Shown here one piece after another: positions 32,162 to 40,022 of a stretch of DNA of 43,688 nt (its first letter is position 1; each line of letters begins with the position of its first letter). The notes under the pieces were generated by a model, which did no database searches, was not told where the DNA came from, and saw nothing but the letters and a program-made list of their open reading frames with translations. Origin of the DNA: a virus. Lineage: Duplodnaviria; Heunggongvirae; Uroviricota; Caudoviricetes. The translations under genes were made by a program, and so were the position numbers. The stretch lies in the IMG/VR virus record IMGVR_UViG_2526164631_000038; one strand, given 5' to 3'.

Positions 32162-32908
32162 TTACTTCGCAATTCCTGGCTGGACGACATTCGGACGCCA
32201 GCTCTCCCAGTTAAAATTCACCCAACACCCGCCGTTCATGGTCATGCGATCCATAATCCTCTCGCCGAGCAATGTTTTCATGGCCTCATAGTTCAGGTTT
32301 GTCAGCATTCCCACGCTACGCATCGACGCTGTCCGTCGATCAATAATCTGGTGCAGTACCACCTGCTCGTTTTTCGTCTCGCGCTGAATGCCAATTTCAT
32401 CAAGAACCAGCAGATCCACTTCGCACAGCTCCCGCAAAAATTTTTCGCCTGACTGCCCGTCGTCATAGCTGGCGTGCAGGGCGCTCATAACATCAGCCAC
32501 GGTAACCACAATCACTGTCTGACCGTCTTTCAGCAGGCGATTCCCGATAGCTGCCGCTAAGTGATTCTTCCCGGTACCAGGTTTTCCGCTGAACGCAAAA
32601 TTTGTACACCCGGTCATCAGTTCATCGGCGATGGATTTCGCCTGGCTTAACGCGTATCGCTGCCCTTCGTTCTGCACCTGGTAATTCGCAAACGAGCATT
32701 TGCGGTGCAACGGCTGGATGCCAGAGCGATTCAGGATTTTTTCCACCCGCAACTGACGATTCAGGCGGTTGATCTCCTCGCAACGTTTCTGGCCTTCAGC
32801 AAGTTGCCACTCGCGCCACTCCGCAACCGTTCTGAATGGGGCGGTTACATGTGGTGGGGTCAGTCTGCGGATACGCTCCAGAACGCCGCCTGTCGCAATA
32901 TTTTTCAT
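32162..32908 (-). CDS. DnaC-like helicase loader
   Basis: Walker [18 protein letters not shown], Walker [10 protein letters not shown] and overall near-colinearity with E. coli DnaC as recalled. Confidence 0.85.
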
Positions 32909-32914
32909 GGTCTG

Positions 32915-33709
32915 TTACCCCCTGAAGCCTGGCGGGATCGCACTGTCCGGCAACGAGACGGTGTTAACCTGTCGGAGCAACGTCTCAGGCCGAACACCTT
33001 TCGGTGCGAACAAGCCCTGGTATTCATTGGCGATGCTGTGTCGAATCACCTGCTCAGGTGTAAAACCCTGCTGACGGAATTTTTCCAGTTCCCGTATCGC
33101 CCCGTTAGCGCCCTGCTCCGTTCGAATCGGTTTTCGCAATGCCTGTCTGAACCGGACCCACTCATGCCAGAGTGTTTCCGGCAACCAATCAGGCAGCTCA
33201 ATAGCCTCCGGCTCGAATTTTTTAGACGCTCGTTTTTGGCGAGGGGGATTTAGGGGGAGATCAGTATTTAGATCTTCCTCTTCCTCTTCCTCTTCCTCTG
33301 GTAACGCTTTTTGATCCGTTTGTGTAACGCTGGCAGCGTTACCTTTTCGTTTCAGTTCGCGTATTTTTGTAACTCGCTCGTTTGTAACCGCCCGTTTTTT
33401 AGAGCTTTTTCCGTTATGACGTTCAAAGTTAGGTAGAGAAAGCCCAACGTCATTTTCGACCAGCCATCCAACCTGAATTAACGCATCAGCAAAACCAGCC
33501 ATAAAAGTGATGCGATCTATTGCACTTTTTGTAACGCCGCGAGCGTTACAATCTGCATTACCGTCTATCATTTGTTGATCCGCCCATGCCCAGAAGCGAA
33601 TAACCTTCCCTAATGCGGCATCTGGATCAATATTCAGAATCTCAGCAAGCCTGAATATTTCCGGCTTATCCGGCGTAATAACCTCGAGCTTTATCCAGTT
33701 TGAAGCCAT
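32915..33709 (-). CDS. replication initiator / replisome organiser (lambda O-like role, Rac YdaU-like)
   Basis: 264-aa ORF immediately upstream of the dnaC-like gene; internal poly-Glu linker; contains palindromic repeats (see findings). Confidence 0.6.
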   Translation of the reverse strand: MASNWIKLEVITPDKPEIFRLAEILNIDPDAALGKVIRFWAWADQQMIDGNADCNARGVTKSAIDRITFMAGFADALIQVGWLVENDVGLSLPNFERHNGKSSKKRAVTNERVTKIRELKRKGNAASVTQTDQKALPEEEEEEEEDLNTDLPLNPPRQKRASKKFEPEAIELPDWLPETLWHEWVRFRQALRKPIRTEQGANGAIRELEKFRQQGFTPEQVIRHSIANEYQGLFAPKGVRPETLLRQVNTVSLPDSAIPPGFRG

Positions 33710-33786
33710 TTGTTTTCACCTTGTAACGCTCGCAGCGTTACATTTAACTGATACCGAACAAAACAATCCGGCACGATTAATTTCAA

Positions 33787-34209
33787 TCAATGCACTACGA
33801 CAGAATCGCCGGGCGACCCACCACCGCTGAAATGTGCTTTCCGGTAAACGGCCTGGACTGCATCATCATGCGCATCAATTGCCGTACTCAACGCTTCCTG
33901 CGCCGCCAGTAATGCACGGCGTTCCAGGGTATCGAAGATGCAGAGTCGGTGACGCAGCTCGCGCGGAAGAATTGCCAGAACCGCAGGGATCAGTTTCTGA
34001 ATTTTTTCCCTTTGCGCTTTCGTTTCACCTTTCAACCAACGGTGATAGATATTCTGCTGATTGTTCCAGTCCTTGCCTGGTACAAGGGGCAATTCGCCGC
34101 CCCCCTGGCGCAGATATTCTTCAGTAATTGCGTTAGCGACCCACGCCTGCCCTTTTTCGGCTGCCAGGGCTAACAACACTGATTCGATGTGCTCATGCCT
34201 GATTTTCAT
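33787..34209 (-). CDS. CII-like lysogeny regulator (Rac YdaT-like)
   Basis: 140-aa ORF directly downstream of cro, overlapping its stop; sequence recalled as close to Rac YdaT. Confidence 0.5.
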   Translation of the reverse strand: MKIRHEHIESVLLALAAEKGQAWVANAITEEYLRQGGGELPLVPGKDWNNQQNIYHRWLKGETKAQREKIQKLIPAVLAILPRELRHRLCIFDTLERRALLAAQEALSTAIDAHDDAVQAVYRKAHFSGGGSPGDSVVVH

Positions 34210-34448
34210 GAATCAACCGCTCCTATGCTGTTTTCGCTATGCTTACCGTCTGGGGGGAATACATCGTCAAGTCCACAATGAGTGCCAAGCCGATTAAGGG
34301 TAGAAACAATTTTTCTGCACTCCTCTAGTCCAGGGGTACGAAAATTTGCTTCGTAATTTGCCAGTCGGCTTTGTATCCACCCTAACTGAACAGCAAGTTG
34401 TCTTTGAGACAGCCCAAGCTGTTTTCGATATGTTGAAATTTTGTTCAT
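34206..34448 (-). CDS. cro: Cro-like HTH repressor (XRE family)
   Basis: 80 aa; HTH LGLSQRQLAVQLGWIQSRLANYE; GGAGG Shine-Dalgarno; divergent from the cI-like gene. Confidence 0.7.
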   Translation of the reverse strand: MNKISTYRKQLGLSQRQLAVQLGWIQSRLANYEANFRTPGLEECRKIVSTLNRLGTHCGLDDVFPPDGKHSENSIGAVDS

Positions 34449-34544: not shown

Positions 34545-34964
34545 ATGGAAAAAGAAAACGAAAAAATTGCCGCTAGTAGGCTCAATGACAAAATTGCAAT
34601 GCGTCTTAAAGAGCGCAGGCAGAAGCTTGGTTTATCTCAAGGAAAACTTGCTGAAATCTGCGGATGGACGCAATCGCGTATAGGTAACTATGAGGCGGGC
34701 AGCAGAAATGTTGGAGTGCATGACGCTGTCGTATTGGGAAAGGCACTTGGCATATCTCCTCCTGAGCTCCTATTTGGAGAACAGGAATCTTCTGAATTGT
34801 GGTTAAATGAATCCCAACGAAAACTTCTTGAGTTGTTTAACCAGCTACCGGGCTCAGAACAACAACGAATGATTGAGCTATTTGAAGTCCGGCTAAAAGA
34901 AATCGATGAGTATGTAGAAAAATATTTGAGAGGCAGGCTTAAAGATAATCCCCCACCGGAGTAA
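34545..34964 (+). CDS. cI: CI-like repressor (XRE HTH, short form without a recognisable autocleavage domain)
   Basis: 139 aa; HTH LGLSQGKLAEICGWTQSRIGNYE; no Ser/Lys peptidase-type C-terminal domain; divergent from cro. Confidence 0.7.
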   Translation: MEKENEKIAASRLNDKIAMRLKERRQKLGLSQGKLAEICGWTQSRIGNYEAGSRNVGVHDAVVLGKALGISPPELLFGEQESSELWLNESQRKLLELFNQLPGSEQQRMIELFEVRLKEIDEYVEKYLRGRLKDNPPPE

Positions 34965-36878: not shown

Positions 36879-39800
36879 ATGAGCACCGATAAACAAGTTT
36901 ACCCACTGTATTACGAAGCAAAAAATGACAAAGTAAGAAAACGTCTCGGTATTAAAGGCGGTTTTTACTGGGCTGAAGCGAAAAAATTATCCATTGCCAT
37001 CTCCCGTGGTGCTGTTGCAATTGACGATGCTGGCTACGATGAAGATGACTTCAAAAAACCTGTTCGCGTCAATTTGCCCATTGTTGATGACCTCCCGCCA
37101 GAAGGCGTATTTGATACGGAATTCTGCAACCGTTACGAAAAAGGCGGGGAAGATGGCATCACAATGGTATTTATCGCGCCCTCCCCCTCTGCGCAGGGCA
37201 AACCAGCCAGCACTGACAACACCAATGTTAATGGCGAAGACATGACGGAGATTGAGGAGAATATGCTACTTCCGATTTCTGGCCAGGAGCTGCCCATTCG
37301 CTGGCTTGCTCAACACGGCAGCGAAAAACCAGTAACGCACGTTTCACGCGACGAACTCCAGGCATTACACATTGCACGGGCTGAAGAACTACCGGCTGTT
37401 ACTGCCCTGGCTATTTCGCATAAAACCAGTCTGCTCGACTCGCTGGAGATTCGCGACCTCCACAAACTGGTTCGTGACACTGACAAAGTTTTCCCTAATC
37501 CTGGTAATTCAGACCTGGGACTAATAACTGCTTTTTTCGAAGCATACCTGGACGCTGACTACACTGATCGGGGTCTGCTGACAAAAGAGTGGATGAAAGG
37601 AAATCGTGTTTCACGCATCACCCGCACGGCTTCCGGTGCTAATGCTGGCGGTGGGAACAAAACCGATCGCAATCCGAATTTAGTACACACCCTCGACACA
37701 CTGGATGTGGAGATTGCAGCAGCCACACTTCCGATGGATTTTAATATTTATGAAATTCCGGGCAGCGTTTATCGTCGCGCAAAAGAAGTAGTCCTGAACA
37801 AAGAAAGTCCGTTCAAAGAATGGTCCGCAGCACTTCGTGCAACCCCGGGTATTCTGGACTATTCCCGCGCCGCTATTTTTGCACTTATCCGAAGCGCACA
37901 CCCTGAATTTTATCACTACCCGGGACGCCTTCAGGGGTATATCAACGCCTATTTGACGGAAACTGATCACGAGAACCCCAGCAAGGAAACTCTCACAGCT
38001 GCCCGGCATACGCCGGAAAAAGATATCCTGGAAGAAATTAACCGCGAGGTGGTTACTGAGCGTGAAACAGAAGAAGAAAAACCACAACCATCTGACGCAA
38101 TGGCAGGTGAACAGGCAACAACTGAAACAATGGAACCGGATACAACTGAACATGGCCAGAACGCGCAGTCGCTGGATGCTCAGTCGCAGGTGAGTTCCGC
38201 TAACCAAGTAAAAGTCACCGCTGACGAAGTAAACAAAATTATGCAGGCAGCCAATATCAGCCAGCCTGACGCCGATAAGTTACTTGCTGTATCGCGTGGT
38301 GAATTTGTTGAGGGGATTAGCGACCCTAATGATCCGAAATGGGTCAAGGGGATCCAGACTCGCGATTCTGTGAACCAGAACCAGCATGAATCGGAACGGA
38401 ACGACCAAAAAGCGGAACAAAACAGCCCAAATGCGTTACAAAACGAGCCAGAAACGAAACAATCCGAACCAGTAGCGCAACAGGAACCGGAAAAAGTCTT
38501 CACCGCCTGCGGTCAGAGCGGTGGCGGCAACTGCCCTGATTGTGGCGCGGTGATGGGCGACGCAACATACCAGGAAACATTCGATGAAGAGAATCAGGTT
38601 GAAGTTCAGGAAAATGATCCGGAGGAAATGGAAGGTGCTGAACATCCGCACAAGGAGAACGCTGGCAGCAATCCGCATTGCGATTGCAGTGATGAAGCTG
38701 GTGAAGCGACAGCACCTGTAGTAACTGAAATCATGTGGCCGTCATATTTCGAGCCTGGCCGCTATGAAAACCTCCCGAACGAGGTTTATCACTCCGCCAA
38801 CGGAATAAGCAGCACAATGCTGAAGGATGCCCGCATCAGCCTGATGTATTACCACGGACGGCACATTGCCGGAACTATTCTGGGCGAGGAAAGTGATGCA
38901 TTGCTGCGTGGGCGGATTATTCACAGCTATGTTCTGGAAACGGATAAATTCGCTGATGAGTATGCCATTCCGGTACCGGTTCCTGAATATGTGGTTACTA
39001 CTTCTAACGAACTGATCGCCATCATTAAAAAACACAATGCCAGTCTGCCAGCACTGATGACACCAGAGCAGATGAAAGAGTGGATCGAAAGCTACAACAG
39101 CACTCTTATACAGCCACTGTCGGTAAGTGCCGGGGCCGAAGAAACAGGCATCCTTTACGGTTCGCTTCCGGAGGAATTCCGGCGTATTCCTGAGGGGGAA
39201 AAACACACAGCATCAGCAATGAAAGCCTGTATTAAAGAATACAACGCAAGCCTCCCTCCTCTGCTGAAAGCCAGTGGAACACGGGAGCAGCTCCTGGAGC
39301 AAATTGAAACTGTAGATCCAGAACTGGCAAAAAAAGAACGTGCTAAATCTTTGCCTTACAACATCAGTGGCACAAAAGAGCAATTAACCGAAATCGCCCG
39401 GAAAATTCGCCCGGAACTGGTGACACTGGAGGACTGGCAAAAATGCCAGCAAGAAGAAAACGCCGGGAAAACGTTTATCAGTCCGGATATGTATGAACAG
39501 GCAAAAAATATTCACGCAGCACTGCAAAACAATACTGATGCAGCAAGGCTACTCAACCACCCGGATCGCAAATCTGAAATCAGCTATTTCGGGTTTGATG
39601 AAGAAACCGGGCTGGAAATCAGGGTCCGTCCTGATATCGAAATCCGGCTGCCATACGAAAGCATTTGCGCCGACGTGAAGTCAGTCAGCCTCGGTTATGT
39701 GCGACAGGAACGACTGAAAGATCGCCTGCACCGTGAAATTATTGAGCGTGATTATCACCTCAGCGCAGCAATGTATTGCGATGTGGCAAACCTGGACAAA

Positions 39801-40022
39801 TTTTTCTGGATCTTCGTCAACAAAGATGCTGGCTATCACTGGGTGGCCGTCGTGGAAGCCTCGCAGGAACTCCTGGAACTTGGTCGACAGGAATATCGCC
39901 GGACGCTACGACAGATAAACGAAGCTCTGGAGACAAACAACTGGCCAGCACCGATTACCGAAAGTTATACCGACGAATTAAACGACTTTGATCTTCGTCG
40001 TCTTGAAGCACTGAGCATCTGA
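36879..40022 (+). CDS. recE: RecE-like exonuclease VIII (PD-(D/E)xK C-terminal domain) with long acidic N-terminal/middle region
   Basis: 1047-aa ORF; C-terminal ...IRVRPDIEIRLPYESICADVKSVS... nuclease-like motif; followed by a RecT-family gene as in Rac. Confidence 0.65.
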   Translation: MSTDKQVYPLYYEAKNDKVRKRLGIKGGFYWAEAKKLSIAISRGAVAIDDAGYDEDDFKKPVRVNLPIVDDLPPEGVFDTEFCNRYEKGGEDGITMVFIAPSPSAQGKPASTDNTNVNGEDMTEIEENMLLPISGQELPIRWLAQHGSEKPVTHVSRDELQALHIARAEELPAVTALAISHKTSLLDSLEIRDLHKLVRDTDKVFPNPGNSDLGLITAFFEAYLDADYTDRGLLTKEWMKGNRVSRITRTASGANAGGGNKTDRNPNLVHTLDTLDVEIAAATLPMDFNIYEIPGSVYRRAKEVVLNKESPFKEWSAALRATPGILDYSRAAIFALIRSAHPEFYHYPGRLQGYINAYLTETDHENPSKETLTAARHTPEKDILEEINREVVTERETEEEKPQPSDAMAGEQATTETMEPDTTEHGQNAQSLDAQSQVSSANQVKVTADEVNKIMQAANISQPDADKLLAVSRGEFVEGISDPNDPKWVKGIQTRDSVNQNQHESERNDQKAEQNSPNALQNEPETKQSEPVAQQEPEKVFTACGQSGGGNCPDCGAVMGDATYQETFDEENQVEVQENDPEEMEGAEHPHKENAGSNPHCDCSDEAGEATAPVVTEIMWPSYFEPGRYENLPNEVYHSANGISSTMLKDARISLMYYHGRHIAGTILGEESDALLRGRIIHSYVLETDKFADEYAIPVPVPEYVVTTSNELIAIIKKHNASLPALMTPEQMKEWIESYNSTLIQPLSVSAGAEETGILYGSLPEEFRRIPEGEKHTASAMKACIKEYNASLPPLLKASGTREQLLEQIETVDPELAKKERAKSLPYNISGTKEQLTEIARKIRPELVTLEDWQKCQQEENAGKTFISPDMYEQAKNIHAALQNNTDAARLLNHPDRKSEISYFGFDEETGLEIRVRPDIEIRLPYESICADVKSVSLGYVRQERLKDRLHREIIERDYHLSAAMYCDVANLDKFFWIFVNKDAGYHWVAVVEASQELLELGRQEYRRTLRQINEALETNNWPAPITESYTDELNDFDLRRLEALSI

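Follow-up and report, generated by a model that had tools for sequence, protein, structure and literature searches.

What purpose do the palindromes in and just upstream of the replication initiator gene of this virus serve? The stretch of DNA analysed here, hereafter the window, is 43,688 nucleotides long and carries several copies of the dyad GTAACGC-N5-GCGTTAC, together with scattered half-sites and a short purine-rich repeat. An earlier note on this DNA proposed that the palindromes are origin iterons or autoregulatory sites, bound either by the initiator or by a CII-like protein. In our judgement these elements, three dyads with the extra half-sites and a polypurine tract, probably form the origin of replication of a Rac-like prophage, lying in and just upstream of the initiator gene. 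The comparative support for sites of this kind is strong, consisting of constraint at the level of DNA, concerted changes of the half-sites and co-inheritance with the N-terminal domain of the initiator, although it falls short of proof. From these comparisons we infer which protein binds the sites, that the element fires replication and what the tract contributes.

The initiator gene and its neighbours

The sites lie in the part of a Rac-like prophage that holds its immunity and replication genes. The initiator gene (32915-33709, minus strand) is of the Rac-like type and encodes 264 amino acids. Directly downstream lies a ydaV-like gene for a DnaC/IstB-like helicase loader (32162-32908, minus strand; PF01695, E 1e-19), followed by DUF1627 and DUF977 genes. 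Upstream, and of importance here as context only, is the gene for the CII-like protein YdaT (33787-34209, minus strand; PF06254), then those for a Cro-like helix-turn-helix protein (34206-34448, minus strand) and a repressor (34545-34964, plus strand). A 1047-aa open reading frame (36879-40022, plus strand) adjoins the immunity region, and its location corresponds to that of the exonuclease VIII / PD-(D/E)XK nuclease genes annotated in phages TL-2011b and BUCT554. The 511-bp region that holds the sites is found in 691 of 5426 complete E. coli genomes.

The initiator is annotated as "hypothetical" by PGAP/RefSeq in the records listed. Over its full length (residues 1-264, E 1e-90) it matches the profile phrog_2509, a 'replication initiation protein' whose members include epsilon15 gp23, CP2 ORF40 and phiPSA1 gp34. 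In the protein a winged-helix-like N-terminal domain (amino acids 1 to ~105) is joined by a linker to a C-terminal domain resembling that of lambda O, which matches the O-like profile phrog_678 over amino acids 101-238. The N-domain of ~105 residues matched none of the Pfam and NCBIfam models at E-values up to 10, a homologue (L016) was likewise without a Pfam family at E up to 10, and a profile of the initiator matched no PDB sequence. The predicted structure of the N-domain contains a helix-turn-helix and a beta-hairpin. Its structural neighbours are winged-helix domains and the N-domains of phage replisome-organiser, DnaD-like and DUF1376 proteins, the resemblance of fold in BFVD being weak (E 5.6e-4 to 0.3). 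As hmmscan gave no match to DUF1376 or Phage_rep_org_N, we do not count the initiator as a member of either family.

Dyads, half-sites and a polypurine tract

Three perfect dyads are present in the window. Site B (GTAACGCTGGCAGCGTTAC, 33324-33342) lies at position +367 of the coding sequence (CDS), in the part that encodes the linker, and is read as G-N-A-A-S-V-T. Site A (GTAACGCCGCGAGCGTTAC, 33531-33549) lies at CDS +160 in the N-domain coding region and is read as C-N-A-R-G-V-T. Site C (GTAACGCTCGCAGCGTTAC, 33723-33741) falls in the 77 bp that separate ydaT from the initiator gene, where it ends 13 nt upstream of the initiator ATG, directly 5′ of an AAGGTG Shine–Dalgarno sequence; a promoter scan in its vicinity found none. 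The three 19-mers quoted in the earlier note are thus present exactly, but the starts given there (33334, 33529 and 33722) were off by 10, 2 and 1 nt from the true ones (33324, 33531 and 33723). The spacing from one dyad to the next is 207 and 192 bp. Even with up to two mismatches allowed they are the sole matches to GTAACGC-N5-GCGTTAC in the 43.7-kb window, the immunity region included. The chance expectation is 0.10 per window, and three copies were seen in 0 of 100 shuffles.

Half-sites are also enriched. The window holds 12 copies of GCGTTAC against 4.1 expected, and seven of the 12 fall within 33301-33741. One of these is a perfect terminal half-site, GCGTTAC(C) (33301-33307, minus strand; encoding A-L-P), which lies 23 nt, or two helical turns, past the right arm of site B. 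The additional half-sites that had been reported around 33365..33390, as TTTGTAAC motifs, are real though weaker: they read GAGTTAC (33369-33375, minus strand) and CGGTTAC (33384-33390, minus strand), and at the same position two homologues (L100 and L101) carry a perfect GCGTTAC. A further degenerate half-site, GTAATGC (33555-33561, minus strand), lies 12 nt upstream of site A. It was born of a 12-nt tandem duplication, GGTAATGCAGAT/TGTAACGCTCGC (33538-33561, minus strand), which adjoins site A and amounts to a four-residue insertion, DCNA, in the protein. In the window an 11-nt insertion separates the terminal half-site from site B. Taken together, the 12-nt duplication at site A and the 11-nt insertion by site B indicate that insertions and deletions here come in units of a helical turn.

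Next to the terminal half-site is the polypurine tract, AGAGGAAGAGGAAGAGGAAGAGGAAGA on the coding strand (33273-33299, minus strand). It is 27 nt long, encodes eight Glu residues and is the sole purine or pyrimidine run of at least 18 nt in the 43.7-kb window. The tract is strongly strand-asymmetric, with a G+C content of 48% in the window and 40% in relatives where it takes the form (AGAGA)n; at 48% the window tract is not AT-rich, unlike classical unwinding elements. Site B, the terminal half-site and the tract together cover codons 123-145 of 264, between the N-domain and the O-like C-domain. On the plus strand, site B followed by CTTTTCGTTT (33324-33352) resembles the hairpin and T-run of an intrinsic terminator, antisense to the initiator gene. 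This signal is probably a by-product of the palindrome and of Lys codons.

Conservation of the layout among homologues

In order to ask how widely this arrangement is shared, we assembled ~40 diverse homologues with 24-72% protein identity from a one-genome-per-species scan and a search of a phage database. They come from phages of Enterobacterales, Pseudomonas, Xanthomonas and Xylella and one Vibrio phage; from the betaproteobacterial genera Ralstonia, Achromobacter, Duganella and Paraburkholderia; and, beyond the Gamma- and Betaproteobacteria, from an alphaproteobacterial MAG, from Planctomycetes (Stieleria and Phycisphaeraceae) and from Verrucomicrobia. Named phages among them are epsilon15, SPN1S, CP2, PAN70 and phiPSA1. 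Dyads or half-sites are retained in ~40 diverse homologous loci.

The layout of the sites is regular. Nearly all homologues with GTAAC-type sites carry dyads at CDS +148 to +172 and at CDS +346 to +393, the former being an equivalent of site A in ~30 diverse homologues. The second position belongs to a linker cluster, in which one to four left-facing half-sites with a 12-bp period are followed by one or two right-facing half-sites with an 11-bp period, the last of which reads GCGTTAC-C. The arrays of the homologues thus include unpaired direct repeats of the half-site at a period of 11-12 bp. In 36 of 40 diverse loci a polypurine tract begins within 1-2 nt of the last half-site, its form being (AGAGGA)n among the enterobacterial loci and (AGAGA)n in the others. 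An exact 18-mer, AGAGAAGAGAAGAGAAGA, is shared by 16 of the 40 loci, including some with a different half-site sequence. The distance between sites A and B is 198-240 bp, without clean helical phasing. As for the hexamer repeat (CCTCTT)n, the earlier view that it encodes poly-Glu is correct; it is not a separate feature, however, but belongs to the same element, of which it is the best-conserved part.

The distribution of site C is different. It is present in all Rac-like copies from E. coli and Shigella and in a Pantoea homologue (L101), and missing from most distant homologues. This bears on the idea that the sites are autoregulatory operators only, which would repress translation or transcription or block read-through, with the true origin lying elsewhere. 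The place of site C against the Shine–Dalgarno sequence fits that idea, the intragenic sites could serve as transcription roadblocks, and the initiators of iteron replicons often autoregulate through inverted repeats. However, site C is the one that most homologues lack, while the linker cluster and the tract occur in almost all, and an operator model leaves a polypurine tract that is conserved in its nucleotides and fused to the last half-site unexplained. We regard operators as the sole function as unlikely, though autoregulation and origin function are not mutually exclusive. Within an origin, we judge from its distribution that site C would be auxiliary or autoregulatory.

Some loci depart from the common layout. 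In three GTCCGC-type loci, those of epsilon15 (L134), phiPSA1 (L136) and RPZH6 (L138), the upstream half-site cluster lies at CDS +54 to +105, which in the epsilon15 type is ~90 nt closer to the start codon than in GTAAC-type genes. An upstream cluster that moves while its function stays points to DNA as the level that matters. A locus from Enterobacteriaceae bacterium LSJC7 (L104) encodes a truncated initiator of 145 aa, with a decayed GTAATGC...GTATTAC at CDS +148, and lacks the linker cluster; the replication module there seems to be dead.

A search of plasmids for the initiator gave two circular, phage-sized records only, both with the gene in a lambdoid-like module: NC_015459 of Pusillimonas sp. 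T7-7 (L140, 41 kb) and E. coli pE16EC1016-8, CP088505 (L141, 52 kb), the second of no recognized replicon type. These could be phage-plasmids, or else phage genomes in circular form, with replication starting from this origin. As support for autonomous replication they are weak.

Selection on DNA rather than protein

Sites that lie within a gene could simply reflect the protein that the gene encodes. Do the repeats then merely follow from a recurring amino-acid motif (G-N-A-x-S-V-T, and poly-Glu), with no function as DNA? The frame of site A is indeed constant, and its G, N, A and V residues are invariant. The linker dyad, on the other hand, occurs in reading frames 0, 1 and 2 among the homologues, and the same dyad then encodes unrelated peptides; site B, for example, is read as G-N-A-A-S-V-T in the window and as V-T-L-A-A-L in a Klebsiella phage (L002). 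Site C is non-coding altogether.

Codon usage points the same way. Among 26 diverse homologues the synonymous codons of site A are fixed or nearly so, with GGT in 23 of 23 cases, AAC in 24 of 24, AGC in 19 of 19, GTT in 24 of 24 and TTA in 16 of 20, against background frequencies of 0.22, 0.65, 0.28, 0.30 and 0.06, respectively. The binomial P-values range from 3.5e-5 (AAC) down to ~1e-16. As a control, other invariant Gly columns use all four codons, with the most frequent making up a fraction of 0.35-0.46, and invariant Arg, Pro and Asn columns outside site A are also saturated for codons. The Arg codons of the tract are AGA in 33 of 33 cases, compared with a background of 5% AGA (16% for AGA and AGG together). 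Furthermore, the 5-nt period of (AGAGA)n cannot be produced by repeating codons, which makes the poly-Glu repeat part of the DNA element. On the tests of frame and codon usage we reject a protein-repeat origin of the sites, and we give it next to no chance. The codon comparisons show selection acting at the level of DNA on both the sites and the tract.

The half-sites also vary in a coordinated manner. Three homologues (L115, L127 and L128) carry GTCACGC/GCGTGAC at every site that each possesses, namely sites A and B in L128, site A in L115, and site B with the terminal half-site in L127; in L115 and L128 the Val codon within these sites has changed synonymously from GTT to GTG. GTCCGC/GCGGAC half-sites are found in epsilon15, phiPSA1, RPZH6 and L132, GTAGAC/GTCTAC in both clusters of phage Raharianne, and GTGACGTAAC-type repeats in phage Eline. 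In L017 the arms carry a compensated change, GTAACGA/TCGTTAC. From the alignments, variants of the half-site are shown to change in concert at all sites of one element.

Within the Rac-like group we compared 61 unique sequences (from loci L005-L009 and L018-L099). Scored as presence or absence of variation, 7 of 49 arm positions are variable against 104 of 477 positions elsewhere (p=0.27, not significant), and the arm variants are all near-singletons. The spacers (window 33331-33335 and 33730-33734) are hypervariable in the same 61 sequences, with 10 of 15 positions variable against 104 of 477 (p=3e-4). Their main alleles are exactly inverted with respect to one another, TGCCA/TGGCA at site B and TGTGA/TCACA at site C, the pattern that template switching leaves behind at an extruded hairpin.

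Could the palindromes then act as hairpins, in RNA or single-stranded DNA, rather than as binding sites on the duplex? Such hairpins might serve mRNA stability or processing, antisense termination, or as a primosome or single-strand signal. Each dyad folds stably as RNA (-12.6 to -16.8 kcal/mol for segments of 51-71 nt, with z-scores of -2.8 at site B and -2.9 at site A), site B scores as terminator-like on the antisense strand, the arm changes in GTCACGC/GCGTGAC and in L017 are compensated, and the inverted spacer alleles suggest extrusion in vivo. However, the z-score for folding is just -0.95 at site C. The sequence of the arms is conserved across phyla while the loop varies, which is the reverse of most functional hairpins; the outer pair is broken without compensation in ~20 sites (GTAACGC...GCGTTAG); and the direct half-site repeats at 11-12 bp are unable to pair. 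We consider a hairpin function in place of duplex binding very unlikely.

Sites that travel with the N-domain

Which protein would bind the sites? The domains of the initiator have been exchanged among relatives, and this allows the sites to be assigned to one part of the gene. Klebsiella phage ST11-OXA245phi3.2, Enterobacter phage BUCT554 and E. coli phage TL-2011b share only the N-domain and linker with the window, the C-domain of the last two being DnaT-like. In all three the dyads inside the gene are retained, their arms perfect and their spacers variable, at only 68-70% nucleotide identity. Loci L003 and L004 are of this kind, with a DnaT-like C-domain. Conversely, where only the C-domain is shared, as in L010-L015 and K-12 YdaU, both the dyads and the purine tract are missing. 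The comparison thus shows the sites co-inherited with the N-domain of the initiator, and not with the swappable C-domain or with YdaT. For site A part of this co-inheritance holds by construction, as site and N-domain are physically the same DNA.

The initiator is the only gene that is constant across the loci that bear sites. This is of importance for the proposal that the sites are read by another protein, be it YdaT, a Cro- or CI-like regulator, or a host factor. YdaT-family proteins bind inverted repeats, and site C comes directly after ydaT. Nevertheless, YdaT homologues are detectable beside only 4 of the ~40 loci that keep the sites, the other upstream neighbours being unrelated, and on this ground we reject the CII-like protein that the earlier note had offered as an alternative binder. 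Switches of the half-site that are specific to one element speak against a conserved host factor, and a search of the immunity region and the rest of the window gave no further dyads. Altogether, a binder other than the initiator seems to us highly improbable.

Some residues of the N-domain vary with the switch from GTAAC to GTCAC, namely N-to-H, K/E-to-S/H after HNG, and RV-to-RK. At least two of these covarying candidates are themselves encoded by half-site DNA, which confounds covariation as a test of recognition.

A model for initiation

On the origin reading, the N-domain of the initiator would bind GCGTTAC half-sites and sit as a dimer on each 19-bp dyad, where the centres of the half-sites are 12 bp apart. 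From there it would spread to flanking half-sites, whose phasing of 11-12 or 23 bp would place the bound proteins on one face of the helix. The linker cluster (33301-33342) abuts the tract (33273-33299), and we propose that the duplex is opened, or one strand captured, at this point. The C-domain, lambda-O-like here and DnaT-like in relatives, would then recruit the helicase of the host together with the DnaC-like loader. Site A, ~200 bp upstream, and site C are probably auxiliary, through looping or cooperative loading and through autoregulation, and site C could also throttle the translation of the initiator. Several observations weigh against the origin reading: dyads that stand ~200 bp apart instead of in tandem, the lack of clean phasing between sites A and B, a tract that is not AT-rich, and the arms of close relatives, which are not significantly less polymorphic than other positions.

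The tract is kept while the specificity of the half-sites changes. This suggests a reader for it, either some invariant portion of the initiator or a component of the host, or else that a physical property counts, which could be a stable R-loop formed by the purine-rich transcript. A bolder possibility, to which we give a modest chance and which on balance is doubtful, is that the tract, rather than a passive unwinding element, is a specific initiation device working by R-loop formation or by capture of single-stranded DNA, so that coding sequence, transcript and origin would be a single object. As an R-loop, the purine-rich mRNA running through the initiator gene would open the origin or prime synthesis, like a retroviral polypurine tract. 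As a capture device, an invariant part of the initiator would take the (AGAGA)n strand as single-stranded DNA, in the manner of DnaA-trios or of Rep loop-back. Either form would apply to a class of phage origin that occurs across several phyla.

Implications

In the literature on ydaU, oriJ, the GTAACGC motif and epsilon15 iterons we found no description of these sites. Judged by the comparative evidence, the element is most likely the origin of a widespread and uncharacterized family of initiators, and a variant on the theme of an origin inside the initiator gene. If this is true, an origin is located for a large unannotated initiator family that includes epsilon15-like, Xanthomonas, Pseudomonas and Ralstonia phages. 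The family would have a lineage-specific recognition code, GTAACGC, GTCACGC, GTCCGC or GTAGAC, which could help to predict whether prophages are incompatible in replication or immune to one another, and to build orthogonal mini-replicons. The element would also be an unusually clean natural case of DNA-binding sites kept within coding sequence in all three frames. The polypurine tract would be a testable lead on how an origin opens, and the "Rac" prophages would carry at least two origin specificities.

Comparison with known origins

The closest precedent in its logic is the origin of phage lambda, which lies in the middle of gene O, has a 19-bp inverted repeat as its iteron and needs an adjacent tract for unwinding (PMC7466680). 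The lambda origin and the putative one here both lie in the initiator gene, where a DNA-binding N-domain is joined to a C-domain that recruits the loader, and both are built from a 19-bp inverted-repeat unit; in both a strand-asymmetric tract stands beside the sites, insertions of sites add residues to the protein, and transcription comes from a pR-like operon (PMC7466680). Lying between the parts that code for the two domains, the window sites occupy the place expected from lambda, and we counted this in favour of the origin reading. The analogy with lambdoid origins drawn in the earlier note is thus sound as to logic, but it does not extend to the protein family or to the layout. The N-domain of the initiator falls outside Phage_rep_O and matched nothing in Pfam, and the recognition sequence is another. 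Where lambda has 4-6 tandem iterons and an AT-rich block, the element described here has two or three clusters ~200 bp apart, arrays of convergent 7-bp half-sites and a polypurine repeat with 40-48% G+C. Nowhere in the window are there four or more tandem 19-bp iterons within ~100 bp.

The replisome-organiser, DnaD-like and DUF1376 initiators are similar in another respect, having a winged-helix origin-binding domain at the N-terminus and a swappable recruiter domain. A case in point is the G38P protein of SPP1, for which oriL lies inside gene 38. The window initiator differs from the replisome-organiser and DUF1376 types in that it belongs to neither profile (Pfam, E up to 10) and in its repeats.

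TrfA and RepE, two Rep proteins, attach to their iterons and also to a single strand of the unwinding element (PMC10602881; PMC4081077). The origins of such iteron plasmids, and oriC, resemble the window in having a phased array of duplex sites that faces an adjacent tract of short-period repeats. The proteins, however, have other folds, the window initiator being without a Rep_3 or DnaA domain. Iteron plasmids are characterized by Rep_3 (WH1-WH2) initiators, direct iterons of 17-22 bp and DnaA boxes, and this combination is not what the window presents; its half-sites are inverted or convergent, in an element described as wholly protein-coding.

The last comparison is with Rac itself, which has been reported to carry an active origin, oriJ (PMC3945230). 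The prophage of E. coli K-12 is of the same type as the one in the window, with its origin in the same position of the replication module (racR-ydaS-ydaT-ydaU-ydaV). In K-12 MG1655, however, only amino acids 146-264 align between the initiator and YdaU, at 85% identity. The two proteins share the C-domain, whereas the N-domain of YdaU is of the DUF1376 type, and ydaU has no GTAACGC dyads and no polypurine tract but a repeat set of its own in the equivalent region. That set comprises five intragenic (G/A)ATGTT(C/G)AA repeats, at 2266, 2351, 2510, 2543 and 2555 of the K-12 locus (L133, NC_000913 1419000-1424000); L010 and L015 carry them too. These repeats are candidates for the iterons of oriJ. 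With an unrelated N-domain and no dyads in K-12, the window would represent a different origin specificity within the same module.
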